DNA of 64,000 nucleotides from an uncultured bacterium (GTDB taxonomy: Bacteria; Babelota; Babeliae; Babelales; RVW-14). Every line of letters starts with the position of its first letter. Positions within the stretch are counted from its first letter, which is position 1. The stretch lies in the NCBI GenBank assembly GCA_963759805.1, contig CAVXAT010000002.1, forward strand, positions 128,001 to 192,000. The letters are read 5' to 3'. Under the pieces are notes generated by a model. The model was not told the origin of the DNA. It ran no database searches and worked only from the letters and a program-made list of their open reading frames with translations. Positions 4,805-35,776 of this stretch are shown here, piece after piece. The translations under genes were made by a program, and so were the position numbers.

Positions 4805-6379
4805 ATGGTTACGTTTTTTAACAAAATTTATGGATGCCAAGCAAATTTTGCAGACTCACAAGGCCTTGCCAAATTTTTAATAGAACTGGGGTGCATACCT
4901 GTTGATTCCGAACGGAATGCCGATCTGATAATTATTAATACCTGCGCAATCCGCGAAAAGGCAGAACAGAAGCTTTATTCATACATTGGCAGACTGGCAG
5001 AATTAAAAAAAGATAAACCCCATCTGAAAATTGGTGTTATCGGTTGCGTAGCCAGCTACAAGAAAAAAGAGTTTTATGAATACTTTGAATGCATCAGTTT
5101 CGTCCATGGTGCACGCGAGGAAATCGCTGCACTGCAGGGATATTTGGCTGAATTAATCTCAAATATTCAAACAGCAAAGAATTTATTTATACAAAATCCG
5201 GATTCAAAAATAAAATATTTAAAACAGGATCGTAGGCTAAAAAAGATATTTGACAAAAGGGCCATTGGCTCAACCCGAATTAACACAGATCCAAGCAGTA
5301 TCAGCAGACTTAATTTAAACGAGCATATCAAAGATGAATCAAACAAAGACAGGCGACTTCTTCTGAAACCCGGCGCGTCACCAAGTGATGGTTCGACAAG
5401 CTCCCAGGCTTCGCCCTTCGTGGCTACGCCGGGCACGGCACCACGAGCGCGCCTGCATTCAGAACAAATATCTGATGTTCGAGCCATGATTAACATCATG
5501 ACCGGATGCAACAAATACTGCTCCTACTGCATCGTGCCATTCACCCGCGGACGCGAAATAAGCTATCCGATGGCCGACATTTTAAATGCCGTAAAAAAGG
5601 ATCTTGATCGTGGGGCAAAAGAGATCACATTAATTGGCCAAAATGTCAATTCTTACATTGATCCACAAACCGGCACTCGCTTCCCTGATCTTTTACAAAA
5701 AGTTGCATCAATTGAGGGGGATTTTTGGGTACGATTTGTAAGCCCACATCCACAAGATATGACAAAAGATCTGTTTCAAGTTATGGCAGACAACAGACCA
5801 AAACTTACTGCTTTTTTGCACTTTCCGCTGCAGTCCGGATCAGACACAATTCTAAAAGCCATGAACCGAAACTACACAGTGGCAGAATTTTTAGAAAAAA
5901 TAGGCTGGATTAAAGAGTTAATGCCGGATGCAGGGATAACTACAGATATAATCGTCGGATTTCCGGGAGAAACCGAGCAGGATTACTTGGCAACTCGGAA
6001 AGTAATGGAAATGGTAAAATTTGACCAAATTTACTCATTTATTTACTCCAAACGCAAATTTACCAAAGCTTATAACATGCCAGATGATTGTACCCAGGAG
6101 GAAAAGGCTCGACGTTTAAGCGAACTGCAAAGGCGCCAGCGAGAAATCTCTTTGGAACAAAACAGGGAAAAGATTGGCAAAACTTTGAAAGTTCTTATTG
6201 AAAAAGAGCTAGAGCCTGGTAAACTTTTAGCAAGAACAGAAGCAAACGCTCGGGTACTTATAACAGGTAAAAATGCGAGTTTAGTTGGCAGCTTTGTGAA
6301 CGTGAAAATTGAAAGTACTACGGTTGTTAACTTGTCAGGGGTTTGTCATCCTGAACTCGTTTCAGGATCCATGGATTAG
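4805..6379 (+). CDS. miaB: tRNA methylthiotransferase MiaB, with an in-frame palindromic insertion in the inter-domain linker
   Basis: YGCQAN, NTCAIREKAEQK, GCNKYCSYCIVPFTRGRE, DIIVGFPGETE, C-terminal TRAM domain. Confidence 0.93.
   Translation: MVTFFNKIYGCQANFADSQGLAKFLIELGCIPVDSERNADLIIINTCAIREKAEQKLYSYIGRLAELKKDKPHLKIGVIGCVASYKKKEFYEYFECISFVHGAREEIAALQGYLAELISNIQTAKNLFIQNPDSKIKYLKQDRRLKKIFDKRAIGSTRINTDPSSISRLNLNEHIKDESNKDRRLLLKPGASPSDGSTSSQASPFVATPGTAPRARLHSEQISDVRAMINIMTGCNKYCSYCIVPFTRGREISYPMADILNAVKKDLDRGAKEITLIGQNVNSYIDPQTGTRFPDLLQKVASIEGDFWVRFVSPHPQDMTKDLFQVMADNRPKLTAFLHFPLQSGSDTILKAMNRNYTVAEFLEKIGWIKELMPDAGITTDIIVGFPGETEQDYLATRKVMEMVKFDQIYSFIYSKRKFTKAYNMPDDCTQEEKARRLSELQRRQREISLEQNREKIGKTLKVLIEKELEPGKLLARTEANARVLITGKNASLVGSFVNVKIESTTVVNLSGVCHPELVSGSMD
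5372..5453 (-). repeat. composite palindromic element in miaB: A element carrying a nested 36-bp B element (5404..5439)
   Basis: GC-rich island bounded by ggcgcg/cgcgcc. Minus strand reads cgctcgtggt-[gccgtgcccggcgtagccacgaagggcgaagcctgg]-gagcttgtcgaaccat, matching the uvrC copy. Confidence 0.9.
6344..6370 (+). repeat. C-family REP-like palindrome (TGTCATCCTGAA-loop-TTCAGGATC) encoding the MiaB C-terminus
   Basis: tgtcatcctgaactcgtttcaggatcc; near-identical inverted copy at 25056..25081. Confidence 0.85.
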
Positions 6380-6410
6380 TAACCTCCCTAAACAGTTCTT
6401 TGAATTATAC

Positions 6411-6484
6411 GGCGGCATAGCCAAGTGGTAAGGCAGCGGTCTGCAAAACCGCGACCCCCGGTTCAATTCCGGGTGCCGCCTCCA
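6411..6484 (+). tRNA. tRNA-Cys(GCA)
   Basis: ggcggca/tgccgcc acceptor stem, anticodon loop ctGCAaa, gttcaattc T-loop, encoded CCA. Confidence 0.96.
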
Positions 6485-6512
6485 ATCTTCTCAGCTCAAG
6501 TCTTATCGATTG

Positions 6513-6541
6513 TTGACATGTAAGACTGTTCATATTACTCT
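6513..6541 (+). promoter_or_regulatory. putative sigma70 promoter for tRNA-Leu
   Basis: TTGACA-17 bp-TACTCT, ending 13 bp before the tRNA 5' end. Confidence 0.45.
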
Positions 6542-6554
6542 GCTTATCGTATGT

Positions 6555-6641
6555 GCCGGGGTGGCGAAATTGGTAGACGCAAGGGACTTAAAATCCCTCG
6601 GGTGTAATCCACCCATACCGGTTCGAGTCCGGTCCTCGGCA
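6555..6641 (+). tRNA. tRNA-Leu(TAA), CCA not encoded
   Basis: gccgggg/cctcggc acceptor stem, anticodon loop ctTAAaa, long variable arm, gttcgagtc. Confidence 0.95.
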
Positions 6642-6724
6642 CTCTCCTACGCTTTCGCCCTGTGGGCTCATAGCTACGAAGAGCAGGCCATCCTAAATTT
6701 ACGCGCTACACAGATGGCACGGCC
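6642..6724 (-). repeat. B-family palindrome abutting the tRNA-Leu 3' end (6642..6688), plus a degenerate second copy
   Basis: Minus strand gcctg-ctcttc-GTAG-ct...ag-CGTA-ggagag; second partial copy gccgtgcc...gtagc at about 6700..6724. Confidence 0.75.
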
Positions 6725-6731
6725 ACCCAAA

Positions 6732-7769
6732 TTAGATCTCCAACTCTTTACGTAAATTTGCAAATTCAGTCTTAAATGACTTTTCAAGCTTTTGTTTCTG
6801 CTCCGCAGGTAAAAAACTTGCGTGCACTCCATTCAAGCTAATTTTCTCAAGATCGTTTAGATTAAATCCAAAATGATCGGCCAGTATTTTGTACTCATTA
6901 TTTAAATCTGTGTTAAATAGCGCAGGATCATCAGAGTTTATAGTCAATAAAAGTCCGGAATCCCATAATTTACGAAACGGGTGAGATTTAAAATCAGGAA
7001 ATACACCCATGCAAATATTGCTGGTCAAGCAGATTTCTAGCGGAATCTGTTTGTGTTTTAAAAAATCGATTAATTCGGAATCTTGAACGCAGGTAACTCC
7101 ATGCCCTATTCGATCAGCATGAAGAAGATTTATAACACTCCAGATACTTTTTGGCCCGGCCATTTCTCCTGCATGAGCTGCTATTTTAATTTTATTTTGA
7201 TGCGCAGTTTCGAATGTTCCACTAAAGTCCTCTGTGTTAAAAAGACTTTCACTTCCGGTCAAACCCAAGCCAACAACACCCTGATCTTTGGAATTTAAAG
7301 CGGCATCAAGAACAAATTTTTGCGATTCCGGTTCATCGCGCAAAATATCAAATATCCAATTCCAAGCAACTCCAAAGTCAATCGCTGCTCTCTTTCGTCC
7401 ACGATTTAACGCTTGCATAATTTCCTGCCAGGGCAAGCCGGTTGACCGGCAGTTGGTAAAAATTGAAAAAGTTACCTCTGCATAACGAATATTTTGTCTT
7501 GCACATTCACACCCAAATTGATATGAAATCAATTCGTAGTCATCGACAGTTTTAAGGCAACTGGTAACAAGCTCATAAATTTTTATAAATTGCTGAAAAT
7601 TTTTGAATTTAAACAGCTCCTTCAACTTTGTTGCAGCTTTTATTGGCAGGTCAATGTTATTACGTGCTGCAAGTTCAAATAACGTATCCGGGCTAATTGC
7701 TCCCTCTAAATGCACGTGCAATTCAACCTTTGGCATACGCATAACAAATTCATTTATAATATTTGACAT
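6732..7769 (-). CDS. add: adenosine/adenine deaminase
   Basis: PKVELHVHLEG, AHAGE, RIGHG, EICLTSN, INSDDP. Confidence 0.93.
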   Translation of the reverse strand: MSNIINEFVMRMPKVELHVHLEGAISPDTLFELAARNNIDLPIKAATKLKELFKFKNFQQFIKIYELVTSCLKTVDDYELISYQFGCECARQNIRYAEVTFSIFTNCRSTGLPWQEIMQALNRGRKRAAIDFGVAWNWIFDILRDEPESQKFVLDAALNSKDQGVVGLGLTGSESLFNTEDFSGTFETAHQNKIKIAAHAGEMAGPKSIWSVINLLHADRIGHGVTCVQDSELIDFLKHKQIPLEICLTSNICMGVFPDFKSHPFRKLWDSGLLLTINSDDPALFNTDLNNEYKILADHFGFNLNDLEKISLNGVHASFLPAEQKQKLEKSFKTEFANLRKELEI

Positions 7770-7863
7770 AAAATTCCTAAAAAAAAGCCAAACAGTTCTA
7801 TCTTGAACGTAACTATAACAAAATGACCCCTAAAAACTGAAGCTTCTTCAAAAAAAATTTATA

Positions 7864-7896
7864 CCATTTTTTGCTTTATTAAAAAGCAAAAAATGG
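7864..7896. promoter_or_regulatory. 14-bp inverted repeat between the divergent add and hup genes
   Basis: ccattttttgcttt-N5-aaagcaaaaaatgg; function unknown. Confidence 0.35.
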
Positions 7897-8048
7897 CGCT
7901 CCCCCCCGTCGAACTTAAACATTATAACAAAGACACTTGACAAATCTGATGTGATCAGCAATTATGTGATATAATATATTTTAAGTATGGTGAAATCGTA
8001 AGTGTAACACTATTGATATCCTAACTTTATGTTGGATAGGAGATTTCT

Positions 8049-8321
8049 ATGAATAAGGCAGAATTAATTGAGCATATGGCGAAGAGTACAAAACTCTCCA
8101 AAGCTGCATGCAAAGGTGCTATCGAGTCAATCATCGAAGCGGTAGAATCAACATTGAAAAAAGGTAAAGATGTTGTTTTGACAGGCTTCGGAACATTTAC
8201 CGTTATCAGAAGAAAAACAAGAATTGGCATAAATCCTGCAACAGGAAATAAGATGACAATCCCTGCTAAAAAAGTTCCTAAATTTAAGCCCGGCAAACAA
8301 CTTAAGGATGCAGTTCTCTAA
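8049..8321 (+). CDS. hup: DNA-binding protein HU
   Basis: MNKAELIE, GFGTF, R.GINPATG, VPKFKPGKQLKDAV. Confidence 0.96.
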   Translation: MNKAELIEHMAKSTKLSKAACKGAIESIIEAVESTLKKGKDVVLTGFGTFTVIRRKTRIGINPATGNKMTIPAKKVPKFKPGKQLKDAVL

Positions 8322-8348
8322 ACAAGAGCTAACTGATTTCAATTAGTA

Positions 8349-8385
8349 AAAACAAGGCGCAGATATCTGCGCCTTGTTTTATTTT
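8349..8385 (+). terminator. intrinsic terminator after hup
   Basis: Perfect 32-bp palindrome aaaacaaggcgcagat|atctgcgccttgtttt followed by a T-rich tail. Confidence 0.8.
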
Positions 8386-8516
8386 CACAACTTCCTATAT
8401 TTTAACAACATTTCAAACGACTTTATAAAATTCTTTGCAAAAAAAATCATCCTCACGTTAAACTTTTATGAATGTTAAATACATTTTCAATTTTTAACTG
8501 TGAGAGGATCGGAATT

Positions 8517-8939
8517 ATGGAAAGTAACACACTGAGTACTACACTGACAAGCACACTGGATAAAGTAAAGACAGCCTGGAATGACTTTGATTTAAATAAA
8601 TGGTCAAACGAAGTTGGTGGAAGCTCCCCGGTAGCAGAAGCAATTCAGGCAGGTATATATTTCTGCATCAGTTTTGGAATTGGATATATTTTAAAAAAAC
8701 ACTTCAAAACTATAGTATTGAGCCTGCTTTTAAGCGCACTAATCGTCAAAGGAATGGAGTACGGCAAACTGCTTACAATAGATTGGAACGCTATAAAAAA
8801 CATGTTTGGGGCATCATCAGCTGATAGTAAAGATTTTATGACCCCAATGGTAAATCATGGAATTGAGTGGATTAAAAAGAACGTAATTGTATCCATAGCA
8901 TCACTCATCGGATTTCTACTTGGCAGCAGATTAGGATAA
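8517..8939 (+). CDS. FUN14-family small membrane protein
   Basis: G..F.I.FGIGYILKKHFK...EYGKLLTIDW...GFLLG pattern; ATG 8517 follows gagagga. Confidence 0.65.
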   Translation: MESNTLSTTLTSTLDKVKTAWNDFDLNKWSNEVGGSSPVAEAIQAGIYFCISFGIGYILKKHFKTIVLSLLLSALIVKGMEYGKLLTIDWNAIKNMFGASSADSKDFMTPMVNHGIEWIKKNVIVSIASLIGFLLGSRLG

Positions 8940-8943
8940 AGAT

Positions 8944-10206
8944 ATGGATGACGGCACACTAAACACCTCATCCACATACTCACTATTCAACACTGAAGAA
9001 AAAATAACCCAAAATATGAGTTCTGATCCTATAATCGATTATGTGGATCAGATCATTTACAACGCAATCTCCATGCACGCATCTGATATCCATATGCAGC
9101 CTGAGGAGATGGGTGCTCGTACACGATACCGAATTGACGGCACACTCTACGACCAAGACGCAATAAATCCGGACATGCTAAAACTCGTGATTTCTCGAAT
9201 AAAAATCATTGCGGGATTGGATATAGCAGTTCAACGGCTTCCTCAAGATGGTAAAATCAAATTAAATATTAAAACACGTCCAACTGAAGCTAGTATACAA
9301 AATCAAAACCAATTTCAAGATCAAGATCAAGTTATAGATCTTCGAATTTCAACTTTTCCGTCAACATATGGCGAAAAAATGGTTGTCAGAATTCTTGATC
9401 GATCACACAATCTTTTAAATCTTGAATCTCTTGGCATGAATTCCAAAATGCTCACACATATCCAGAGTTTAATTAAAAAACCTCATGGATTTTTCTTGGT
9501 AACAGGTCCAACAGGATCCGGCAAAACAACAACTTTATATGCCATTCTTTCGGAATTGAATAAACCGGGAATAAACATTGTTACAATGGAAGATCCGGTT
9601 GAGTATGCCGTTCCGGGTATTACACAAAGCCAAGTAAATGACAAAGCAGGCTTTAGTTTCCAAAATGGATTGCGCTGCATGCTACGCCAGGACCCTGATA
9701 TTATAATGATTGGTGAAATACGGGATAAAATCACAGCGCAAATTGCAATTGAAGCCTCACTTACCGGACATCTTGTTTTTAGCACGTTGCACACAAACGA
9801 TGCCGCAGGGGCAGTCACTCGGCTTCTTGATATGGGAGTTGAACCATTTCTCATCAATGCTACGTTGACCGGAGTTTTGGCTCAAAGACTTGCTCGTAAG
9901 CTTTGCAATAAATGTAAAAGCGAGACAGAATCTAAAAATCCTGACATAAAAAATCTAAAAACTAATTTTGCAGCACCCGGCTGTGCTGACTGCTTTAATC
10001 TTGGGCACAAGGGACGCCTAGGCGTTTTTGAATTATTGGTTTTGGATGATCAGATAAGAGATCTGGTTTTGCAAAAAGCTGCAACAACAAACGTTGTGCA
10101 ACAGGCGCTAAAAACCGGAATGCAGACATTGATGAATGATGGGCTGGAAAAGGTTAATAGCGGACAAATTTCGCTCGAAGAGTTGTATGCAACTGTAACA
10201 GTTTAA
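8944..10206 (+). CDS. GspE/PilB-family secretion or pilus assembly ATPase (no long N-terminal domain)
   Basis: ASDIH, RLPQDG, GPTGSGKTTTLY, EDPVEY, LRQDPDIIMIGEIRD, STLHTNDA, CxxC..CxxC zinc motif. Confidence 0.93.
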   Translation: MDDGTLNTSSTYSLFNTEEKITQNMSSDPIIDYVDQIIYNAISMHASDIHMQPEEMGARTRYRIDGTLYDQDAINPDMLKLVISRIKIIAGLDIAVQRLPQDGKIKLNIKTRPTEASIQNQNQFQDQDQVIDLRISTFPSTYGEKMVVRILDRSHNLLNLESLGMNSKMLTHIQSLIKKPHGFFLVTGPTGSGKTTTLYAILSELNKPGINIVTMEDPVEYAVPGITQSQVNDKAGFSFQNGLRCMLRQDPDIIMIGEIRDKITAQIAIEASLTGHLVFSTLHTNDAAGAVTRLLDMGVEPFLINATLTGVLAQRLARKLCNKCKSETESKNPDIKNLKTNFAAPGCADCFNLGHKGRLGVFELLVLDDQIRDLVLQKAATTNVVQQALKTGMQTLMNDGLEKVNSGQISLEELYATVTV

Positions 10207-12789: not shown

Positions 12790-14589
12790 ATGAAAGAGAT
12801 TGATAGTAAAAATCTAGAAACACAGATCAAAAATCTTCCCAGAAACTCTGGCGTTTATCTTTTTAAAGATTCTCAGGATCTTGTTTTGTATATTGGCAAA
12901 GCCAAAAACTTAAAAAGTCGCGTATCAAGTTATTTAAAAAGCGATGACATAAAATCCTACTCACTACGGCAAGAGAGTGAGCATCTAGATTTTATAGTAA
13001 CAAAAAATGAACTTGAAGCCATGCTTCTTGAAGCAAAATTAATTCAAACGCATCAACCGAAATTCAATGTACTTTTGAAAACTGGGCAGCCTTTTTTATG
13101 GATTCTAATAAGCCAAAATCTATCATCTGTCACATTACCTGAACTTAAGCTTGTACGTAATCAAAAACAGAAAGGCACATATTTCGGCCCATTTTTAGAA
13201 AAAAACTCGGCACGAAAGGTTTATGATTTCCTAATCAAGACATTCAGATTAAAACTGTGCAAAAAAAAGATTCCTAGCGGCTGCCTTGCGTACCACATGG
13301 GAATCTGTGCAGGAAAATGTAGACCTGATTTTGATAAAAACAGTTATCTGGAAAGAATCGAGCTTGCAAAGTTTGCACTAAAGAACAATCATGCCGAATT
13401 TTTAAAACATTTAAAAAGTTTAATCAAAGAACATAACAAAAAGATGGAATTTGAAAAGGCTCGTCAACTTCACAGTTATATGGCTGCATTTGAGAGAGTT
13501 TTTGATATTCTTGAAACTAAGCCAATAACAAAATTCAAACTCGATGAAAAAGATATCTGGTTTTTAACAGAAGACAAGTCTGCACTATTTTTATTTAAAG
13601 AGAAAAACAGTGTTCTTATAAAAAAAGAGGCTTTTTACTTTCCCAAAGAGTATCAATTGCCAGCCCAGTTTCTGGCTCCATTAGAACAAACCCTTCGACA
13701 GGCTCAGGGTGAGCGCAGAGAGCACCTTGAAGAACCCGCTCGTGGCGCCTGCCCGCCGAAGCTAAACCTAAGCGAAGGCTGGGAGCTTGTCGAACCATTT
13801 CAATGGGTTCTTAAGGCTCAGAAGAGGGCTCAGAAAAACTCTAATATCAAAGAATCTAGTTATCTAGATTTTTTTGAAAGTTACTATCGAACTTATCCCG
13901 CCCCATCAATCATTTTAGTTAATTTTGAAATTGATAATGCAACCCAAAAACTTTATCAAAAATTCATAAAATCTTGGCATAAGAAAAGTTATGACGTCTC
14001 AATAATAATGAAGCCCGAATCCGGCCACTTTGCCAATCTGATCAAGTTAGCAAAAATTCATGTAGATGCAGAAATATCAAAACAGGCCACAATTCCAAAA
14101 GCACTGAAAAGTCTACTAAAACTCCCAATTGAGCCCCACACTATTGATTGTTTTGATATTTCACATAAACAGGGCATGTACATGGTTGGATCATGTGTAC
14201 GTTTTGCCGATAACATCCCGGACAAAAAAAATTTTAGGCATTTTTATATAAAAAGCATAGAACAACAAAATGACTATGCCGCGTTGCATGAAATTGTTCA
14301 ACGCAGGTACAGAAATACAAACGAACTTCCCGATTTAATCTTAATTGATGGAGGCAAGGGGCAACTCAACGCCGTCCAGAAACTATTTCCACAGGCAGAA
14401 TTTGCAAGCTTGGCAAAAAAAGAAGAAACTGTTTTTTCTAAACGAATTCCTGAGGGTAAAAAACTGAATTTAAAAAGTTTTGTGGGACAAACATTAACCG
14501 CTCTTAGAGATTATGCACACCACTTTGCGATAAGTTTTCATCGCAAAGTGGAACACAAAAATTCATTTGATATTAACTCAATCGATTGA
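12790..14589 (+). CDS. uvrC: excinuclease ABC subunit C, with an in-frame palindromic insertion and no C-terminal HhH
   Basis: GIY-YIG (GVYLF..YIGKAKNLKSRVSSY), UVR helix (MEFEKA), RNase H-like IDCFDISH, PDLILIDGGKGQL, RDYAHHFAISFHR. Confidence 0.93.
   Translation: MKEIDSKNLETQIKNLPRNSGVYLFKDSQDLVLYIGKAKNLKSRVSSYLKSDDIKSYSLRQESEHLDFIVTKNELEAMLLEAKLIQTHQPKFNVLLKTGQPFLWILISQNLSSVTLPELKLVRNQKQKGTYFGPFLEKNSARKVYDFLIKTFRLKLCKKKIPSGCLAYHMGICAGKCRPDFDKNSYLERIELAKFALKNNHAEFLKHLKSLIKEHNKKMEFEKARQLHSYMAAFERVFDILETKPITKFKLDEKDIWFLTEDKSALFLFKEKNSVLIKKEAFYFPKEYQLPAQFLAPLEQTLRQAQGERREHLEEPARGACPPKLNLSEGWELVEPFQWVLKAQKRAQKNSNIKESSYLDFFESYYRTYPAPSIILVNFEIDNATQKLYQKFIKSWHKKSYDVSIIMKPESGHFANLIKLAKIHVDAEISKQATIPKALKSLLKLPIEPHTIDCFDISHKQGMYMVGSCVRFADNIPDKKNFRHFYIKSIEQQNDYAALHEIVQRRYRNTNELPDLILIDGGKGQLNAVQKLFPQAEFASLAKKEETVFSKRIPEGKKLNLKSFVGQTLTALRDYAHHFAISFHRKVEHKNSFDINSID
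13691..13798 (+). repeat. inverted A-element doublet in uvrC with a nested 36-bp B element (13747..13782)
   Basis: cccttcgacaggctcagggtgagcg-spacer-cccgctcgtggc-[gcctgcccgccgaagctaaacctaagcgaaggctgg]-gagcttgtcgaaccat; 108 bp, 36 codons. Confidence 0.9.
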
Positions 14590-18172: not shown

Positions 18173-18982
18173 TCAGCGACCATCAATTTCAAATTCTTTT
18201 TTCAAATAACTTTGTTCAATAGGGGTAAAGGCACACCATGCCAAAATCAATTGAACCGGATCACCATCTTTGTTCAAGTGAGGCAGATTTACAATATCAT
18301 AAAATTCATTCATTCTGTTTTGTTTTTTGAGATATTTAAGAATCAAAATTAATAGAACTTGATTAAAATCTGTAACATTACGACATATCATTAAAGGGAC
18401 AGCAGGTATTCCCGCCCAAGTGACCACATATTTGCCATCAGGACTCCATGCCCCCGATTTCCTCCGGCCGTTTGATGTTACTTCGTATAGATCAAATGAT
18501 GCCCCTTCAATAATATCTCCCTCGGGATTCAATGCTACCGAGCACATCGAATCTTTATACGATGCAAGCGTTCTGCATTCTCCTGTTTCTACATTCCATT
18601 CCCTTGCCGTTCCATCAGATAATACCCCTGCAATATATTCACCATCAGGACTCCATACTACTGAGCTCATCCGTCTTTCACTCTCAGCACCCAAGGTTTT
18701 GTGCAACACAAAAAAATCGGGTAATAAGCTCGCTGCCAAACCTTTTGGCACTTCAGGATCTTCACAATACTTTTCAAAAAAATTTAATTTTTCAAAAAAG
18801 TTTAACGTTTCGACATCCCCTGCAATCAATTTTTCTATAAAAGCGTCTGTTTTCACAATACTCGCAACACATGCAGTACAACTTTCCTGCAATTTTGGCA
18901 TAGCAACCAAAACTGTTTTTTGAGAGCAAGTGATCAAGGGTAAAATCAAAAATAATTTTGTTGTTTTAAATAAATTTTTCAT
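18173..18982 (-). CDS. secreted WD40-repeat protein, shorter paralogue
   Basis: WSPDG repeats; long near-identical DNA blocks shared with 18979..20037. Confidence 0.8.
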   Translation of the reverse strand: MKNLFKTTKLFLILPLITCSQKTVLVAMPKLQESCTACVASIVKTDAFIEKLIAGDVETLNFFEKLNFFEKYCEDPEVPKGLAASLLPDFFVLHKTLGAESERRMSSVVWSPDGEYIAGVLSDGTAREWNVETGECRTLASYKDSMCSVALNPEGDIIEGASFDLYEVTSNGRRKSGAWSPDGKYVVTWAGIPAVPLMICRNVTDFNQVLLILILKYLKKQNRMNEFYDIVNLPHLNKDGDPVQLILAWCAFTPIEQSYLKKEFEIDGR

Positions 18983-20037
18983 AAATTCTGGAGCACAACA
19001 CTTACCATCTGGGGCACATCAAAACCCTTACCATTAAATACTTCTAGTGAGTATCGAGTTATCGAGCCATCTTGAAAACACTGTTCAAGCTCAGGGTCAA
19101 TACCAAATCTTTCTTTCAGATAACGCTGTTCAATAGGAGTAAAGGCATACCATGCTAAAATCAACTGAATCTGATCGGCCTCTCTATTTAAGTGGGGCTC
19201 ATTTACAATTTTATAAAATTCATTCATTCGATTGTGTTTTTTAAGATATTGAAGAACTAAAAATAATAGAATTTGATTAAAATCTGCAACTTCACGCCAT
19301 ATCGTTAAAGGAGTACCGTCTCGCCAACTGACCAAATATTCGCCATCAGGACTCCATGCTCCCGATATCCCCTGATGTTTATTCCAGCCATTTGATCTTA
19401 CTTTGTATAGATCAAATAATGTGCTGTGAAGAGTTTTCCACTCATGACTAAATGATACCCAAATCGAATCTTTATACGATGCAAGCGTTCTGAATTCTCC
19501 TGTTTCTACATTCCATTCTCTTGCCGTTCCATCATATAATACCCCTGCAATACATTTACCATCAGGACTCCATGCTACTGACTTAACCCCACAACCATGC
19601 ACTGTAAACACTCTGCATTCTCTTGATGCTACATGCCATATGCTTACTATTCCATCAAATGAGGGAATTTTAAATGATGCACTGGCAATATATTTACCAT
19701 CAGGACTCCATGCTACTGATGACGTCCACGTTGCAACCTCTACAGCCAAGATTTTGTGTTGCACAAAGAAATCGGGTAATAAGCTCGCTGCCAAACCTTT
19801 TGGCGCTTCAGGATCTTCACAATACTTTTCAAAAAAATTTAATTTTTCAAAAAAGTTTAACGTTTCGACATCCCCTGAAATCAATTTTTCTATAAAAGCG
19901 TCTGTTTTCACAATACTCGCGATTCGCGCAGCGCAACTTTCCTGCAAAGTCAACATTCCAAATAAAATTGTTTTTTGAAAGCAAGCGATCAGGAATAAAA
20001 TTAAAAATAATTTTGTTGTTTTTACTAAATTGTTCAT
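18979..20037 (-). CDS. secreted WD40-repeat protein
   Basis: SVAWSPDGK.IA repeats; signal peptide from ATG 20037. Confidence 0.82.
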   Translation of the reverse strand: MNNLVKTTKLFLILFLIACFQKTILFGMLTLQESCAARIASIVKTDAFIEKLISGDVETLNFFEKLNFFEKYCEDPEAPKGLAASLLPDFFVQHKILAVEVATWTSSVAWSPDGKYIASASFKIPSFDGIVSIWHVASRECRVFTVHGCGVKSVAWSPDGKCIAGVLYDGTAREWNVETGEFRTLASYKDSIWVSFSHEWKTLHSTLFDLYKVRSNGWNKHQGISGAWSPDGEYLVSWRDGTPLTIWREVADFNQILLFLVLQYLKKHNRMNEFYKIVNEPHLNREADQIQLILAWYAFTPIEQRYLKERFGIDPELEQCFQDGSITRYSLEVFNGKGFDVPQMVSVVLQNL

Positions 20038-20184
20038 AAATAATCCCAAAGCTAAGTAAAAGTTAAGTAATAGAATAAACATAATACAACTAAGTTGGGA
20101 GAGTTTAGCAACAAAAACGAAAAAGTAAAATTTAGATTATGTTTTTATATTTTAAATTGATAGCTTTAAAATTACGCTCTATTT

Positions 20185-21330
20185 TTATCTTCCAAGCACC
20201 TCTTGCCATGTAGGCAAAACCATATCATCAATCATTATCTCATTGATCATGCGCAGCGGCAACTCCGACAATGATTGTGCCGGGGAGTTCTCGCCTAGGC
20301 GCGGATGTTGGACGAGGGCTAGCGTTAACATTTGACGTTTTTGAAGTTTTCTTTCTTGCGTAATTCTTTGTGCAGGCAAATTTGTCCATATTACTACTCT
20401 AACCTCAGATCCATTAAATCCATTCTGTGTAACAATCATGGCCGCTATTTGCATCCCATCTGGGCTAAATGCTATTTTGAATACGTAACCATCTCCATAT
20501 TTAAATGTATGAATGCAAGTCTTACTCTGCATATCCCACAACTCAATTTTTCCATCATTGTCTCTATTCTCACATGCGATAGCAAAAAGACTTCCATCCG
20601 AACTGAATGCTACTGCATTTGATGTTGCATAACAATGTCCCACCACGGGCCATAATTCAAACAGTGGAATACATGTGTCTTTACCCAAATCCAATAAACC
20701 AAGACCTTTTAAAAGGCGCGACTCACCTAAAAGGCACGGCCCACAATAAACCAAAATATTATCATACAAATTGAATGCTAACGCATCTACAGAACCACTG
20801 CATTTAATCGTATGTATACGTTCCATAGTCGTCAAATTCCATACACTAACTTCTCCAGAATCATCTCCGGAGGCCAAAATGTTACCGTCTGAGTTGAATG
20901 CTAACGCTTCTACACAGCCACTAACTTCAAATTTATGTATATTCTTGCCCAACTTCAGATTCCATAATGCAACTTCACGCTGACCTCCAGAGGCCAAAAT
21001 GTTACCATTGGGACTGATTGCCAATGCCCATGCTAAACAATCAATTTCAAGATCACGAGTGCAAATCCTAGACTGCATATTCCAAAATTTGAAATGATCA
21101 TACCGTTGCCCCCATTTCCATTTAAACTCATGAACCAAAAATTCTCCCCCATGACTGGTTGCCAACGCAGTCAAAGGCGCACCGCCTTTGTAGCAACCTA
21201 TATTAACTAAAGTCTCATCTATTACACTCTCATCTATGCCTGGTGCTGCAGCCGCCGCCGACAAATTAGCTGCATAAAATAAAACATGTGCAAACAGTAT
21301 TGTTTTAATGCAATTTTTGATATTCTCCAC
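20185..21330 (-). CDS. secreted WD40-repeat protein with C-terminal HPRLG motif
   Basis: ALAFNSDGNILASG...VWN repeats; signal peptide paralogous to the next gene. Confidence 0.85.
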   Translation of the reverse strand: MENIKNCIKTILFAHVLFYAANLSAAAAAPGIDESVIDETLVNIGCYKGGAPLTALATSHGGEFLVHEFKWKWGQRYDHFKFWNMQSRICTRDLEIDCLAWALAISPNGNILASGGQREVALWNLKLGKNIHKFEVSGCVEALAFNSDGNILASGDDSGEVSVWNLTTMERIHTIKCSGSVDALAFNLYDNILVYCGPCLLGESRLLKGLGLLDLGKDTCIPLFELWPVVGHCYATSNAVAFSSDGSLFAIACENRDNDGKIELWDMQSKTCIHTFKYGDGYVFKIAFSPDGMQIAAMIVTQNGFNGSEVRVVIWTNLPAQRITQERKLQKRQMLTLALVQHPRLGENSPAQSLSELPLRMINEIMIDDMVLPTWQEVLGR

Positions 21331-22150
21331 TGCCTTGCCCCTTCTTCCAAATGGTTATATTTCCATCAGAACATCCGGCCGCTACTTGCATACCATCTTG
21401 ATTTAACGCCACTGCAGTTACCCACCTAGAACCACATTTGAACACATTTATGCATGCCCTTGCCTTCAGATCCCATAACTCAACTTTTCCTAATTGATCT
21501 ACAAAAGCCAAAAAGTTACCATCTGAGGTGAACGCTGCTGCTTGATCGGAAGGGTATACTGTTTGACTCACTTCCAACACAGAATTACATGTATTTGCCT
21601 TCAAATCTAACAGCTTAACAGCTCGGGCACTCACACAAAAAGCTAAAATGTTGCCATCTGGGTTGAACGCTAATGCGCATACCCAATCTTTACACTCAAA
21701 CTTATGAATAAGTGTGTCTGTATTCAGATTCCATACCTCAACATTTCCGCCTTCCCCAATGGCCAAAGTTTTACCATCCGGACTGAAAGCTACTGAGAAT
21801 ACATAATTTTTGCAGGGAAAAGTAAATATATTTTTTTTCTCGTTTAAATCGACCAAATCAACCTTGCCATTAGATCCCACAGCCAAACCGCCACCTCCCG
21901 GACTAAATGCTAGCGCACGTGCAGAACCAACATATCCAAAATCACAAAAACGTCCATCCGACAAAAATTTCCATAATAGAGCATTCTCATCATGGGCAAA
22001 AGCCAAATCTTTCTCATTCGGACTAAAGGCTAATGCATGGACTGTCGCCTCCCCATACACCGGATCAGCGCAGGCAGCATTGAGATTAGCAGGCCCAAAC
22101 AGAACAAATAAAAACAACCCAGTTTTAATAAAGTTTTTGATACTCTTCAT
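21305..22150 (-). CDS. secreted WD40-repeat protein
   Basis: About seven ALAFSP(D)G..LA...V.(L/V)W(D/N) repeats. Confidence 0.85.
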   Translation of the reverse strand: MKSIKNFIKTGLFLFVLFGPANLNAACADPVYGEATVHALAFSPNEKDLAFAHDENALLWKFLSDGRFCDFGYVGSARALAFSPGGGGLAVGSNGKVDLVDLNEKKNIFTFPCKNYVFSVAFSPDGKTLAIGEGGNVEVWNLNTDTLIHKFECKDWVCALAFNPDGNILAFCVSARAVKLLDLKANTCNSVLEVSQTVYPSDQAAAFTSDGNFLAFVDQLGKVELWDLKARACINVFKCGSRWVTAVALNQDGMQVAAGCSDGNITIWKKGQGSGEYQKLH

Positions 22151-22268
22151 AGATACATCTCCTTATTTTTTCACTAAACATTATTTTGATATAAAGCGTA
22201 TCAAAATATATCGAATTTAATATTAAAAAAGAGAAAGTTTTTTGCAAAATTCACAGTCAGGGAGGCTG

Positions 22269-22376
22269 TTGTCATCCGCCGTCGCCAAAGCTTGGCTGTA
22301 GCGAGATTTCAGCCTGCCCGTCGAAGTATTAACTACATACCAAATTTTTTTGAACGAATAAAGCGAGGTCGGGCGT
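22269..22376 (+). repeat. degenerate B/C-family palindrome remnants, intergenic
   Basis: gcctgcccgtcgaag (22312..22326) ... gcgaggtcgggc matches B arms around an expanded AT-rich loop; ttgtcatcc at 22269. Confidence 0.55.
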
Positions 22377-25024: not shown

Positions 25025-25055
25025 GTTATTTTTAAAGGAAGTTTATTAATTGATA

Positions 25056-25081
25056 GATCCTGAATCAAGTTCAGGATGACA
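25056..25081 (-). repeat. C-family REP-like palindrome, 16 bp upstream of cysS
   Basis: Minus strand tgtcatcctgaacttgattcaggatc, 2 mismatches to 6344..6369. Confidence 0.85.
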
Positions 25082-31004: not shown

Positions 31005-31438
31005 GATCCACCTACTTTCTTTAAATATCTTTGATTTTTTGACGCAGGAAAACCTTTTACAAAAAGATCTTGCCTGAAAGGTCCACACACAATCATATCG
31101 ATATTATCGATCAATTCCTGTGGTAGATCCTCAAATTCTCTTCCCGTGTAAAGAGCCTTGTAAAGTAAAATCTTTTTGCAAAGCTCTATTAAAAAATCCA
31201 TTTGATCCGTTGGCTCCCCTCCCAAAAAAACTACACTCTCCGCTAACAAATTACTTTTTATTTTGGACAAAACTTCATTCATTGATGTCAGAGTATCATC
31301 ATTTCGTTCCCACAAAATAGAATTTTGGCATTCTTTGCAGCGAATACTGCAACCGGAAAAATAGATAGCTACAGCAATCCTGTCCGGAACATCGATGAAG
31401 GACGTACAAGTACGAACTATGTATGCACTCCTGTCCAT
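30980..31438 (-). CDS. nrdG: class III RNR activase (radical SAM)
   Basis: GCSIRCKECQN, FLGGEP, YTG, SKNQR; overlaps nrdD. Confidence 0.9.
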   Translation of the reverse strand: MDRSAYIVRTCTSFIDVPDRIAVAIYFSGCSIRCKECQNSILWERNDDTLTSMNEVLSKIKSNLLAESVVFLGGEPTDQMDFLIELCKKILLYKALYTGREFEDLPQELIDNIDMIVCGPFRQDLFVKGFPASKNQRYLKKVGGSWICQNCQ

Positions 31439-31713
31439 AAAACCCTTTGATAATAAAAATTTCTTAAAAATTTAAATGAGCCACTACCCCAAAATTCACA
31501 CAAATTTTATTGCAATATTTTTTGAGTCACAGGTCATCTTACCAGACTCCACAGAGTAGCTCAAGCAAGATTTTTTTAAAGTTAAATTAGCTTGGTTTAT
31601 ACAGGATAAGTAGATAAATTTTATTTATGAACAGCGCGTGAATCAACGCTAAGAAAAATTAGAAAAGGAGATACAAAATGCCAGTGCCTGTTTACCCCAA
31701 AATTATCTTATTT

Positions 31714-32571
31714 TTACTTCTCCAAACCAAGCAAAAACTTACAAATTTTTTTACCTCTTGAATCATATCCAAATTTGGTAAAATTATCCAAACACTTGGG
31801 ATGTGCTATATCCGGACTTGATGTGATTGTAAAGTCAAATATTTTTAGCGGTTTGTTTAAATCAACCTTTCTAGAACCTTTTACATCAGCCGCACAAACT
31901 AAAGTTATAAGTTTAAGCAGTCTTGAATCCAGTTTCTTTTCATAATCAGCCCAAACAAGAACTTTGTAAATATTTGCAAAAAAATCATATATAGCAGGCT
32001 TGGATCTAGATAATTTATCTAAATTATTCGTTTTTTGAGGCAATTTACTCAAAAGCATGCCTAGCTGATTGTGACATCCAACAAGAATTGCGATAATTTT
32101 AATTTCATCTTCGCTCAACCCTAAATTTGCAAAAAATTCAGCAAAATCAATTGTTTTATTATGCGTTAAATAAAAAGATTTTTTACCCAGAAGATATTTT
32201 AGTCCTTCAATTTCATGCCCCGGCTTTGTATAAAAAACAAAATCTAAATCGCCGGCTTTTCCAATATCATGCAAAAGTGCTGCTAAAACAGCAAGCTCTC
32301 TATCGTGCGCACTTAATCCATTACTCCAGAATTCATGATTTTCAAACCACTGATCAACAATAAGAGCTGTCCATATCGAGTGCTGATAAAGATCGCCCGC
32401 ATGAAATCTTACATTTGTTGTCGTATATTTTTTAAAATTATCGATTAAATCCTGTAACTTATAGCTGTCGCTTGCAAAAACAGCTGGCTCAGTTTTTTGG
32501 GTATAAACAGTTATACTTACAGAATTTATTAGAAATACAGAAACTAATAATAATTTTAATAATTTTTTCAT
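31714..32571 (-). CDS. secreted HD-domain hydrolase
   Basis: H.GDLYQHS...AALLHDIGK...GHE...H...AD; signal peptide. Confidence 0.75.
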   Translation of the reverse strand: MKKLLKLLLVSVFLINSVSITVYTQKTEPAVFASDSYKLQDLIDNFKKYTTTNVRFHAGDLYQHSIWTALIVDQWFENHEFWSNGLSAHDRELAVLAALLHDIGKAGDLDFVFYTKPGHEIEGLKYLLGKKSFYLTHNKTIDFAEFFANLGLSEDEIKIIAILVGCHNQLGMLLSKLPQKTNNLDKLSRSKPAIYDFFANIYKVLVWADYEKKLDSRLLKLITLVCAADVKGSRKVDLNKPLKIFDFTITSSPDIAHPKCLDNFTKFGYDSRGKKICKFLLGLEK

Positions 32572-32581
32572 ATTAAGCCTA

Positions 32582-33835
32582 CTATTTTACCCGTCTTTGT
32601 TTAGCTGATAACTTTCTATGCTTAACTGAAGCCTTTTCATACCCCTGCTCAATTTTACCCAGCAATGTTTTTAGCTCTGTTTTATATTTCTTCAAATTTG
32701 GAGTTTCGTTACAATATTTAAAGATTTTCACACCACTTTTAGGATCAAGCATTTTTTTATTCATCAGAAGCCTAAATTGCATAGTATCCAACACATTCCC
32801 GGATAAATCACTGTCAAAAGAGTCACAATCCTTGTACGCCTCCAAATCTTTTGATGCTGGATTGTATGATATACCGCCAAATATTTTATTGAGGAGTGAT
32901 TTACCACATGGGCCATATACAAAGCCTCCAGGGGCACACCGATATGCAACCTCATCAACTAATTTTTGGGGAACAAAAATTTGAAGCAAAAGACCCGTTT
33001 TTTCCTTTTCATAATCACCAAGCAGATTATTAAGTTCCTTAATCAATTCTCGATATTGATCGAAATATTTATTCATCTTGAAAGCCTGAAACGCCTGACT
33101 CACTAAATCACACACATCCACCTCTGTTACATTGCTTGAATTAATAAAATAACAAAAGGAGCATTCCCCTCCCCAATCCAAAGCCGTATTACCAAACAAT
33201 GTTGAATTTACCGAAAGTAAATATTTTTTGACATGAGGCTGTGTGTCAAACCATACCAAATGGTTTGTTAGCTCGCCATTGTCCATATATTGCTTTATAA
33301 AGTTTTCAACCGACCCAAATTTACTAAAATCTTTATCCGGAAACCTAAGCATCACAAAATCATGTAAAATTTTTTTATAAGCAATTTTATAAAGCCCTTG
33401 ATAAATATCCTGAGGCAATGTAAATTCACGCTTTTGGCCATGATAAAAAACATAATAATCATCTTTAAATTCAATTTCCTTTTCAATGATTTCTCTGAAT
33501 AATTCCTTAAAAAAATTGGAGCCTAATTCATTTACTCTTTTGCTAAAATGCCAATTCAGATTTTCATAAAGGGTATGATTGGAAAGATATGCCAACGTCT
33601 GGGTCTGCTTTGGCTTATCAATGCTATTTTTTAAGCCCAATTTTTGATAAGCATCGTCAATTATATTCGTGACATTCAAGTCTTGGCCCGGACAATATGC
33701 AGCAAAAAGCGATGCCTGAAGAGACAATACATTCAAGTCTTGGCCCGGACAATATGCAGCAAAAAGCGATGCCTGAAGAGACAATAATATTAATGCTATA
33801 AATAAGAATCTATTTTTTAGATTTACAACCACCAT
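32582..33835 (-). CDS. secreted hypothetical protein with a 19-aa N-terminal duplication
   Basis: Long ORF with signal peptide; LSLQASLFAAYCPGQDLNV occurs twice. Confidence 0.7.
   Translation of the reverse strand: MVVVNLKNRFLFIALILLSLQASLFAAYCPGQDLNVLSLQASLFAAYCPGQDLNVTNIIDDAYQKLGLKNSIDKPKQTQTLAYLSNHTLYENLNWHFSKRVNELGSNFFKELFREIIEKEIEFKDDYYVFYHGQKREFTLPQDIYQGLYKIAYKKILHDFVMLRFPDKDFSKFGSVENFIKQYMDNGELTNHLVWFDTQPHVKKYLLSVNSTLFGNTALDWGGECSFCYFINSSNVTEVDVCDLVSQAFQAFKMNKYFDQYRELIKELNNLLGDYEKEKTGLLLQIFVPQKLVDEVAYRCAPGGFVYGPCGKSLLNKIFGGISYNPASKDLEAYKDCDSFDSDLSGNVLDTMQFRLLMNKKMLDPKSGVKIFKYCNETPNLKKYKTELKTLLGKIEQGYEKASVKHRKLSAKQRRVK
33672..33786. repeat. exact 57-bp tandem duplication
   Basis: 33672..33728 is identical to 33729..33785. 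Confidence 0.95.
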
Positions 33836-34046
33836 TTTAACCCCCATCTAAAACAATAATTTACCAACCCTACAATTTACAAACCTCCGGATACCATATA
33901 TCTAATCTATAGATTTTATAGTAGGTTTCAAACGGTAGGGGGGTAAGTGGGGGAATATGGGGCGTCAGGTCCAAGATTATTACAAATGAGAAATATTGCG
34001 TGCAAGCAATGCTTTAATCGTAAAAAACAGAATTAAAATTCATTAT

Positions 34047-34697
34047 TTAGACAAAATCAAGCAGTACGGCCCTTGAGAGCGCCGCCTCTACACCTTCAAA
34101 TTTGACGGGCAAGCAGATAAGAAAATATTCACCAGGACTTACATCGCCCAGGCGCAAACCTTCGATAATCGTAATATTAGCTTTAAAAAAAATCTTATGT
34201 GTTTCATGTTCGGGCTGGGCACGCTCAATGCCAAGATAGTCAATTCCAACCGTTTTTACTTTTTTTGACGCAAGATACTGCGCCGCCGTTTTATCAAGAT
34301 AGACAAAATTGGGCTCGAATTGGCCTTGCGCAGGAAGTTCACTATTTTTTGTTTTGAATAAAACTATGTCATTTTCCTGAATATCTAATTCTTGTAAGTC
34401 AGACGCGCTAATCTTTTCCACCCCATTTTTTTCTTTTACTTCAGTTAAATCAAAAACTTTGCAGTTACTAATCAAGTGATCAAATGGCACTTGATCAACA
34501 GTCGCGCCATCTTTGGAAAAATGCGCTGGTGCATCAATATGCGTTCCGGTATGCATATCAAGATACACATGCGTTTGCGCAACGCCATCAGTCTGAATAT
34601 CTTTTACTGCATCAAATTTTAACGCGCCCTTATTTTTATATTCGACTGTATTTTGATTTACGGGCCAGCTGATATCAATAACTTTATACTTTTTCAT
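34047..34697 (-). CDS. cyclase-family (KynB-like) metal-dependent hydrolase
   Basis: HTGTHIDAPAH, VGIDYLGIE, HETH, IIEGL, LP......AA.SRAVL. Confidence 0.9.
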   Translation of the reverse strand: MKKYKVIDISWPVNQNTVEYKNKGALKFDAVKDIQTDGVAQTHVYLDMHTGTHIDAPAHFSKDGATVDQVPFDHLISNCKVFDLTEVKEKNGVEKISASDLQELDIQENDIVLFKTKNSELPAQGQFEPNFVYLDKTAAQYLASKKVKTVGIDYLGIERAQPEHETHKIFFKANITIIEGLRLGDVSPGEYFLICLPVKFEGVEAALSRAVLLDFV

Positions 34698-34705
34698 TTC
34701 TACGC

Positions 34706-35776
34706 CTACTTTTTATTACCCGCGATATCTTTGCCAACCCTGTCCACAGCATGTCCACCAAACTGATTCCGCAGCATAGCAACAACTTTTGTCGCATAAT
34801 TTCCGCCATCTTGCCTGGAATCAGCACGAATCTGCAGTGCACGTTCAATTAGATCAACAGGAACGTTCTGCTCTTTAGCCTCGTCAAGCATCCATCGTCC
34901 TGTTTTGTTTTCGCCTATCTTCCCGGAGATTTCCGTTAAATTTTGATCATGTTCAAAAATGTTATGGGCTAGCTCTAAAATCCACGATCTTATAATCGAG
35001 CCATGATTCCATACGTCAGAAATTTTTTCAAGATCCAAGTCTTTATATTTGCCTTGTTTGAGAAGATGGAAACCTTCTGCGTAAGCCTGCAGTAATGCAT
35101 ACTCAATTCCGTTATGAATCATCTTAACATAATGACCGGCCCCGGAAGGCCCCATGTATGCATATCCCTGTGGAGCAGCAATGGCTTTAAAAATTGTCTC
35201 AAGATGCTCAAAAACTTTTTTATCTCCACCAATCATAAGAGAGAATCCAATATCTTTGCCATGTAGTCCACCGGACGTACCACAATCAACGTAATTTATT
35301 TTTTGGGATATTAAATTTTGATATCGACGAACCGTATCTTTAAAATTGCTGTTCCCGCCGTCTATAATTATATCGTCCGGCTTTAGATATGGAGTCAGTT
35401 CGTTAATAACGTTATCGACTGTATCACCCGCCGGAACCATAAGCCAAAAAATATTTACCTGCGTTACACCATTCGAAGTAAATTTTATGCCCGCATGGTT
35501 CGATACATTTTTTTTGGCCGCTCGCCCTGAGTGCCGAGCTTTGCGAGGCGTATCGAAGGGTGCGGCCTGCAAAAAACACTCACCACGAGCGGGCACGTTT
35601 GGTTCATTAACTATGCCAAGATCTTGCAGCTTTGCCACAGTTTTAACACCGACATCAGCTGCTAATCTTAAATTTTTTTCATTACTATCAAAACCCCAAA
35701 CCTCATGCCCATATTTTAAAAGTCTGTATGCAATAGCATGCCCCATCCGGCCAAGACCAATTACGCTTATTTTCAT
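34706..35776 (-). CDS. gnd: short-form decarboxylating 6-phosphogluconate dehydrogenase, with an in-frame palindromic insertion
   Basis: IGLGRMG, WLMVPAG, IDGGNS, DCGTSGG, GAGHYVKMIHNGIEY, RNQFGGH. Confidence 0.93.
   Translation of the reverse strand: MKISVIGLGRMGHAIAYRLLKYGHEVWGFDSNEKNLRLAADVGVKTVAKLQDLGIVNEPNVPARGECFLQAAPFDTPRKARHSGRAAKKNVSNHAGIKFTSNGVTQVNIFWLMVPAGDTVDNVINELTPYLKPDDIIIDGGNSNFKDTVRRYQNLISQKINYVDCGTSGGLHGKDIGFSLMIGGDKKVFEHLETIFKAIAAPQGYAYMGPSGAGHYVKMIHNGIEYALLQAYAEGFHLLKQGKYKDLDLEKISDVWNHGSIIRSWILELAHNIFEHDQNLTEISGKIGENKTGRWMLDEAKEQNVPVDLIERALQIRADSRQDGGNYATKVVAMLRNQFGGHAVDRVGKDIAGNKK
35488..35595. repeat. nested A-in-A palindromic element in gnd
   Basis: tgcccgc...gcgggca termini (108 bp). 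The outer element atggttcgataca...cactcaccacgagcg encloses an oppositely oriented inner element ggccgctcgccctgagtg...gtatcgaagggtgcggcc (35516..35567). Confidence 0.88.

Follow-up and report, generated by a model that had tools for sequence, protein, structure and literature searches.

Layered palindromic repeats inserted in frame into housekeeping genes of a Babeliales bacterium, and a hairpin family that accompanies UPF0213-like GIY-YIG genes

Introduction

Rickettsia palindromic elements (RPEs) are palindromic repeats of 100-150 bp with terminal inverted repeats, which occur in frame in many housekeeping proteins and, in the sections of the reports considered here, are regarded as probably near-neutral (Ogata et al. 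2000, 2002, as summarised in PMC2229807 and PMC10969869). Two further described systems come close to the one presented below. Ssn proteins are single-domain GIY-YIG proteins of about 95 amino acids (aa) whose genes are bracketed by inverted NTS/SRM hairpins; these hairpins are also dispersed, and according to the main text of the report NTS rarely lie in genes (2%) (Chenal et al. 2025, PMC11893778). CGTC-tagged repetitive extragenic palindromes (REPs) are short tagged palindromes that form head-to-head dimers and have in-frame copies in repair genes (including uvr) and tRNA-modifying genes, with a dedicated transposase given as not known in the parts of the report used here (Di Nocera et al. 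2013, PMC3733652). We analyse three in-frame palindromic insertions in the genes miaB, uvrC and gnd of an uncultured Babeliales bacterium. All three lie in one stretch of 64,000 nucleotides, here called the window (C2:128001-192000 of the genome G000). The inserts are built in layers, with an outer shell, a hairpin of family A inside it and a 36-nt hairpin of family C nested in A. In-frame palindromes are a known kind of element, here met in a new lineage; what is new is the pairing of hairpin A with UPF0213-like genes, and an IS5-type vehicle for one of the shells.

As far as the cited sections of those reports allow a comparison, the likeness to RPEs lies in the dispersal of in-frame palindromes through unrelated conserved genes of a host-dependent bacterium and in their absence from orthologues. 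The Babeliales inserts differ in phylum, in sequence family and in the explicit nesting of independent layers, and also in that one shell end corresponds to that of a complete IS5 element and the hairpin has a matching clade of nucleases; the NCBIfam RPE models gave no match to MiaB, UvrC or Gnd at E 0.01. The ends of RPEs may nevertheless resemble those of the IS5 family. With the CGTC-tagged REPs, hairpin A elements share the tagged palindrome, the dimers and the in-frame copies in repair and tRNA-modifying genes, but their tag is CG(C/T)TC, their stem is bulged, their loop varies greatly and they lack a CCA tail, and their peptides were not found in four text supplements of PMC3733652. Miniature transposable elements with inverted repeats (MITEs) derived from insertion sequences (ISs), such as RUP/IS630, Correia, ERIC and QMITE, and IS5-family elements are likewise short and non-autonomous, with IS ends and TA or 3-bp duplications, whereas the interior here consists of passenger hairpins or broken nuclease cassettes and varies between copies with the same ends. 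The REP/REPIN-RAYT systems resemble ours in having hairpins on both sides of their enzyme gene, and also pairs of hairpins without a gene, but the gene bracketed here is a GIY-YIG gene, and no Y1 transposase of G000 is flanked by hairpin A.

The Ssn system is matched in that a small single-domain GIY-YIG gene is bracketed by inverted cognate hairpins of family A, and family B of G000, together with its own nuclease clade, resembles Ssn/NTS. The differences from the published account are that the partner of hairpin A is UPF0213-like and forms a clade separate from the type flanked by NTS-like hairpins, and that 23 of 71 A loci lie in genes against 2% of NTS. The separate clade and the structural match to UPF0213 argue against placing the A-type protein in cd10448, the Ssn clade. 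The main text of PMC11893778 mentions neither UPF0213 nor cd10456 or cd10449, and its supplements may list such proteins. In our literature search, which most subscription papers lay beyond, none of the matches listed described hairpin A, the UPF0213 proteins paired with it or repeats of this kind in Dependentiae; queries for Ssn with hairpin and mobile since 2024 returned the Ssn paper alone, and queries for UPF0213/YhbQ with hairpins returned none. By analogy, the system may be said to work like RPE plus Ssn, membership in neither family being established.

Three in-frame insertions

An earlier sequence-only reading of the window had marked three GC-rich islands of opposite orientation that keep the host frame open and add foreign peptides. 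The islands are where it had placed them, with the peptides that it had quoted, and their GC content of 0.70 (miaB), 0.62 (uvrC) and 0.58 (gnd) stands against 0.40, 0.34 and 0.40 in the remainder of each gene. The open reading frames (ORFs) that carry them are all open and encode MiaB, UvrC and a 6-phosphogluconate dehydrogenase of the Gnd type. That reading had drawn the inserts too short: they extend from 5355 to about 5464 in miaB, over about 13662-13831 in uvrC and over about 35464-35616 in gnd. Its claim that the miaB antisense frame matches the uvrC sense peptide holds at the ends (ARG...WELVEP) and fails elsewhere; across the island this frame reads RARGAVPGVATKGEAWELVEP. The features are listed below in window coordinates.

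4805..6379, plus strand: miaB ORF, host gene, 524 aa; TIGR01574 above cut-off
5355..5464, no strand: miaB insertion, a truncated M1 shell that keeps its left end and holds one hairpin A with C nested inside; right boundary approximate
5355..5369, plus strand: left end of shell M1 in miaB, GACTTCTTCTGAAAC; matches the inverted repeat bounding complete IS5-family elements (906-914 bp) of relatives
5388..5449, minus strand: miaB hairpin A, TGG/CCA stem, split by hairpin C
5403..5438, plus strand: miaB 36-nt hairpin C, in A at GCT^C
6344..6371, plus strand: miaB hairpin B, CGTC/NTS-like, forming the new MiaB C-terminus CHPELVSGSMD*; relatives are without it
12790..14589, plus strand: uvrC ORF, host gene, 599 aa
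13662..13831, no strand: uvrC insertion, M1-type shell with two hairpins A; right end remnant at 13818-13829, left end approximate
13689..13715, minus strand: uvrC hairpin A, CCC/GGG stem
13737..13798, plus strand: uvrC hairpin A, TGG/CCA stem, split by hairpin C
13748..13783, minus strand: uvrC 36-nt hairpin C at GCT^C; the G002 orthologue is a clean empty site with no duplication visible
34706..35776, minus strand: gnd ORF, host gene, 356 aa; TIGR00872 above cut-off
35464..35616, no strand: gnd insertion, shell M2 with one end deleted; net +150 nt
35494..35591, minus strand: gnd outer hairpin A
35519..35562, plus strand: gnd inner hairpin A, within the loop of the outer A

Comparison was made with the same-genus relatives G001, G002 and G003, among other genomes. 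The miaB insertion adds 37 codons relative to G001, with a smaller excess over G002, and sits in the linker that joins the UPF0004 domain to the radical SAM domain, as delimited by Pfam; the right half of its shell has apparently been deleted. Since a family B hairpin also makes up the end of MiaB (last codons and stop region, 6344-6379), the gene holds two separate elements; a further B copy lies at 25054-25081 of the window. The outer uvrC element is common to G000 and G002, while G001 and G007 are empty and G003 has a shorter unrelated loop. In gnd the insertion amounts to 50 extra codons relative to all five relatives compared.

The host genes have ratios of nonsynonymous to synonymous substitution rates (dN/dS) of 0.06-0.11, which points to purifying selection, and they pass their family cut-offs; indirectly, this suggests that they stay functional. 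Structure prediction from a 6-row alignment (mean predicted local distance difference test score 55.5, with trust restricted to the N-terminal domain) renders the Gnd insert, residues 57-105, as a disordered surface loop between confident, intact Rossmann elements. The added peptides are probably near-neutral disordered loops, and the earlier view that the elements are remodelling proteins was overstated, the inserts lying in linkers or loops. Folded as a whole strand, the islands are modestly better than shuffles (z -0.15 to -2.04), and an Rfam scan of the window and five loci returned three tRNAs only, with no match for the hairpin elements.

Dispersal of the hairpins and empty alleles

The G000 assembly is a metagenome bin of 1.50 Mb in 21 contigs, with a GC content of about 37% and a completeness of 88.7%; its genes were called with a purpose-made ORF scorer and cover 88% of the genome. 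The family A core with a complementary stem occurs 91 times in it, as against 0 in each of five shuffles. When pairing was not made a condition, exact complementarity of the variable triplet was seen in 38 of 39 short-loop G000 copies (partner-shuffle mean 18.8, maximum 30) and in 96 of 107 copies from 80 GTDB loci (mean 18.4, maximum 31), so that the shared core with co-varying stems, as first proposed for the window, stands. The proposal of several non-autonomous families inserting in frame likewise agrees with the G000 catalogue, which comprises 151 hairpin loci: 71 with A, 44 with B only and 36 with C only. The A loci are divided among long ORFs (23), intergenic positions (35) and ends or short ORFs (13); inside long ORFs lie 3 of the 44 B-only and 5 of the 36 C-only loci. 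That 23 of 71 A loci lie in long ORFs, when called genes take up 88% of the genome, points to selection among the copies.

Alignment to relatives, together with the genome scan, brought out both empty alleles and many further copies. The comparison with G001 covered 492 orthologue pairs and spanned 1.03 Mb of about 1.1 Mb in all. Of 32 insertions of at least 24 aa in G000, 19 are hairpin-derived (18 by script, acs by eye); with two shorter hairpin inserts added, 21 G000 genes have inserts missing in G001, and uvrC comes besides. Hairpin A is wholly absent from G001. The insert-bearing genes include what we take to be acs, alaS and mutL, and the Pfam names obtained for 15 of 16 scanned orthologues include GHMP kinases, an epimerase, iPGM, DsbD, NurA, MnmA, a TruA-type synthase, TamB, DprA, a Mur ligase, transketolase, RlmN and ProRS. 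In the reverse direction 26 element sites of G002/G003 were examined, 8 of them without a syntenic pair; 14 of the 18 syntenic sites are empty in G000. Two of the four sites shared by G000 and G002/G003 (mnmA; C5:2585) have different interiors in the two species. In the mnmA loop, the differing composite elements are found at L372 in G002 and at C2:87385-88665 in G000.

Could the inserts be artefacts of assembly or binning, or ordinary variable loops of proteins? The genome is a metagenome bin, and we found no sequencing run with the whole gnd allele, nor one with half or more of the gnd stretch, four runs covering mainly the element and one conserved motif. Such an explanation is nevertheless scarcely credible: it is refuted for uvrC by the same insert in an independent genome, the same peptide recurs in proteins from other sources, and the count of cores far exceeds that in shuffles.

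Shells around the hairpins

Hairpin A is found alone, in pairs or with one copy nested in another. Hairpin C, in most cases 36 nt long, sits in A at GCT^C, with 20 filled against 43 empty sites. A pseudoknot was considered for hairpin A and rejected because the extra pairing is lost in variant copies.

The ends of shell M1 match those of a complete IS5-family element, clearly in miaB and in eroded form in uvrC. In other Babeliales there are complete elements of 914 bp and 906 bp whose ends agree with the 15 bases at 5355-5369; these elements have TA on both sides and encode HTH_Tnp_4 and DDE_Tnp_4; against the IS5 model NF033581 the proteins of these elements fall below the cut-off as split halves, and their plasmid matches are annotated IS5. 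The M1 end pattern is found in 44 of 251 phylum genomes, reversed-pattern controls being near zero. TA flanks both sides of intact M1 shells and of the IS; the window copies no longer have it. In other families, short M1 shells have unrelated interiors, several of them with hairpins or broken GIY-YIG pieces. M1-type shells around broken B-type GIY-YIG fragments and hairpins were seen in other Babeliales (L409:1501-1933, L407, L411). A separate third shell type for uvrC was considered and dropped, as no end pair was found and the insert fits an eroded M1.

Intact copies of shell M2, the type found in gnd, end TACCATTC...GAATGGTA. Three intergenic copies are intact, with perfect inverted ends of 8 bp and a 3-bp TAA/TTA duplication that varies by copy, and four other G000 copies share 97-100% identity with the gnd copy along 111-116 bp. 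Nearly identical copies of M2 stand in other contexts on contigs from unrelated metagenomes, and the same peptide is present in other proteins. A single metagenome match to the M2 end pattern is a chance intergenic match and not a parent. The resident multi-copy transposases of G000, presumably IS982-, IS3-, IS701-like, IS110 and IS200, were rejected as parents of M1 and M2 on account of their differing ends. At C1:1246-4062 an M2 copy is split by two full insertion sequences (IS3-like, IS110-like).

Another shell, the third, lies in the loop of hairpin B. Four of its copies, of 253 bp, have no gene and enclose an inward A pair, and one of 555 bp encloses a B-type GIY-YIG gene; in G002 it carries an A-type cassette. 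The third shell, which bears now an A pair, now a B-type gene or an A-type cassette, thus links the gene-less elements to the cassettes. Its copies are placed as follows.

C1:41146, C1:159367, C4:96480, C8:91585, C1:132765: third-shell copies in G000 (four of 253 bp, one of 555 bp)

The sequence-only reading had spoken of a hairpin mobilome. The hairpins are there, but the outer IS-type shell and its duplications had been missed. Given this shell and the target-site duplications, the unit entering genes is probably a hairpin-carrying MITE and not a bare hairpin.

Hairpin families and small GIY-YIG genes

Besides uvrC, G000 has five small GIY-YIG genes, two of which are bracketed by inward-facing hairpin A and one by B; the remaining two, of which one is truncated at a contig end and the other is short, come after tRNA genes and C hairpins. 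Repeat-flanked small GIY-YIG genes and an enzyme encoded outside the window had both been anticipated, and these genes provide candidates. The other enzyme then proposed, RAYT/HUH or TnpA-like, is rejected: the five matches to Y1 transposases (PF01797) in G000 include none flanked by hairpin A.

In a quick tree of 89 small GIY-YIG proteins, with 6 short rows left out, three clades are recovered (Shimodaira-Hasegawa-like approximate likelihood ratio support, SH-aLRT, of 82, 95 and 97), referred to here as A-, B- and C-type. Their flanks were compared at 95 Babeliales loci from 41 genomes, some 17 weaker matches being left out, using hairpin patterns composed after inspecting those same flanks. 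Hairpin A is a neighbour of 18 of the 24 A-type genes, of 1 of the 30 B-type genes and of 0 of the 41 C-type genes; for hairpin B the counts are 0, 26 and 4, and for hairpin C they are 7, 3 and 30. An independent set of the 80 best GTDB loci of A-type, selected by protein only, extends over Alpha- and Gammaproteobacteria, Nitrospirota, Chloroflexota, Patescibacteria and others. Hairpin A is present within 300 bp at 68 of these 80 loci, 0.1 being expected; it lies upstream facing the gene in 58 and on both sides in 23. The published SRM pattern matches 1 of the 80, none of the 24 Babeliales A-type loci and none of the window elements, and it misses the G000 B copies too. The A-type protein matches the UPF0213 structures PDB 1zg2 and 1ywl at E 1e-22. 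One G000 gene for it lies at C1:266297-266590, and its conserved residues Y7, Y17 and E65 are candidate active-site positions.

The A-type gene is present in 15 of the 41 genomes, counted with kin that are not independent; all 15 have at least five A copies, against 11 of the 26 without the gene, and none of the 12 genomes that lack any A copy has it. Hairpin A is likely to be the recognition site of the A-type GIY-YIG protein, a putative nuclease.

Three A cassettes, each a nuclease gene between hairpins, are found at three different loci in two species, and their homology stops at the outer hairpin edges. This bears on the principal alternative, according to which the hairpin-nuclease-hairpin cassette is itself autonomous: the GIY-YIG protein would move the hairpins and the gene-less pairs, REPIN/RAYT-like, and IS ends would be secondary targets or hitch-hikers. 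The sharp edges and the scatter over three loci fit such autonomy, as does the absence of the C9 cassette region from the matching site in G002 and G003. So do the lone A copies and the behaviour of hairpin C, a clean 36-nt insert at GCT^C without duplication, filled in 20 A sites against 43 empty ones, cleanly gained or lost in uvrC and found at the same GCT^C site in a tRNA-like 5' copy. Yet all that is reported of SsnA, in the parts of its description used here, is that it cuts single-stranded DNA (ssDNA), and no strand transfer is shown there (PMC11893778). The gnd and miaB inserts, moreover, reach IS-type ends, intact shells carry duplications, and no precise empty site for a cassette was obtained. 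We hold cassette autonomy to be unlikely, though a serious contender.

As a separate observation, 29 of the 41 C-type genes are placed immediately downstream of a tRNA-like 3' end, C hairpins usually intervening (L057, L058, L075 and others), and the C-type gene with its hairpin forms a third nuclease-hairpin pairing, tied to tRNA genes. The window has tRNA-adjacent C hairpins without a GIY-YIG gene at 6646-6686 and about 63330-63390. At C19:8446-9146 a tandem array of seven 69-nt tRNA-like 5' ends, split by hairpin C at GCT^C, is followed by an uninterrupted copy. All three copies of an element that we take to be IS110-like (C1:253407, C2:47, C1:3017) are inserted in C hairpins at an identical position; REP-targeting IS110 elements behave likewise.

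Other features of the window and the assembly are an intergenic GC-rich segment at 22254-22336, which resembles a degenerate C-type hairpin and has no close copy in G000; a perfect 57-nt tandem duplication at 33672-33785 within a 421-aa ORF; four successive ORFs at 18173-22150 with repeat units about 120 nt apart, beta-propeller-like; and the end of contig C16, which repeats the start of C1 at about 98% identity.

Discussion

What could be the origin of these inserts? We consider it probable that they are decayed in-frame composite repeats, whose shell was moved in trans by a DDE transposase and whose inner hairpins are read by GIY-YIG nucleases. The layering, the identity of the miaB-type end with that of IS5, the duplications on intact shells, the empty alleles and the bracketing of UPF0213-type genes by hairpin A are direct observations. 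On this basis, hairpin-nuclease-hairpin cassettes or lone hairpins would have become enclosed by IS ends, and loss of the nuclease gene would have left passenger MITEs of 110-250 bp. These would have inserted widely with the DDE transposase acting in trans, selection sparing the copies that kept the frame in tolerant loops; later their ends would have decayed and parts of them been lost. By analogy with SsnA, the nucleases may recognise and nick the hairpins as ssDNA. More tentatively, such nicking might promote the insertion of hairpin into hairpin, or the exchange of interiors by recombination. The whole enzymology that we ascribe to the hairpin A system is read from sequence.

Several observations weigh against this model. 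The empty sites of the relatives are too diverged to place exact junctions, and the assignment of uvrC to M1, its shell ends being eroded, relies on a partial match. A search with one query for the IS5 transposase gave no match in G000 (88.7% complete), G001, G002 or G003. A parent IS for the gnd shell M2 was not found either, its end patterns occurring in G000 alone among 151 and 251 genomes. Some hairpins stand alone without a shell, and shells are therefore not the sole route. Eleven of the 26 genomes without the A-type gene keep 5-70 A copies. Finally, parts of the elements are conserved to excess. Between G000 and G002, third positions differ in 3 of 49 cases within the common uvrC insert and in 105 of 313 over the remainder of the gene; among 325 windows in 63 genes, none has three or fewer differences, and the uvrC window is one of two with 5. 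The M2 cores depart from the majority by 2%, against 14-20% at the ends (6 copies). The favoured model alone leaves this conservation in uvrC and in the M2 cores unexplained; gene conversion, reinsertion at a hot spot, transfer between lineages or selection at the DNA level could each account for it.

The last of these possibilities leads to a different interpretation, in which the hairpins are kept by selection for a job at the DNA or RNA level, limiting the uptake of foreign ssDNA as SsnA/NTS do or acting in mRNA, and the genic copies are domesticated. It would draw on the conserved uvrC insert and M2 cores, on the presence of DprA and a Competence-domain gene, and on the modulation of transformation by SsnA described in the main text of the Ssn report (PMC11893778). 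However, the sites are mostly lineage-specific, the 14 of 18 syntenic G002/G003 sites without an element in G000 among them, two of the four shared sites differ in interior, and G001 does without hairpin A. The near-identity of M2 copies across unrelated metagenomes also speaks against domestication, since recent spread or gene conversion would explain the conservation as well. We regard this interpretation as quite improbable.

A bolder conjecture may be added. Small stand-alone GIY-YIG genes of at least three clades (Ssn, UPF0213-like and tRNA-linked) would each own a hairpin family and supply the enzymes that mobilise CGTC-type REPs and RPE-like coding repeats. Using single strands and no HUH enzyme, they would insert their hairpins into each other and into the shells of ISs, with the hairpins under DNA-level selection even in essential genes. 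We put this forward tentatively and think it doubtful.

To return to the composite repeats moved in trans that we favour, it does not follow that they are moving now. The sequence-only reading had called the mobilome active, which is unsupported: the coding copies have eroded or deleted ends, the single query for the IS5 transposase found none in G000-G003, and the uvrC insert is shared with a relative at a synonymous divergence (dS) of about 0.8.

How RPE-like and CGTC-type repeats move has been a standing question since 2000-2013. G000 sets plausible vehicles, in the form of IS5-type ends, beside a candidate hairpin-specific enzyme, with both filled and empty alleles, and so opens the question to a simple in vitro test. 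If it is true that the UPF0213-like protein cuts hairpin A ssDNA, it would add to Ssn a second large family of nucleases acting site-specifically on single strands, present in many phyla, and the same cutting would give a function to part of the uncharacterised UPF0213 family. The inserts themselves, at least 20 of them tolerated, of 9-83 residues, map permissive loops in core enzymes, and they will distort the annotation and phylogenomics of Babeliales.

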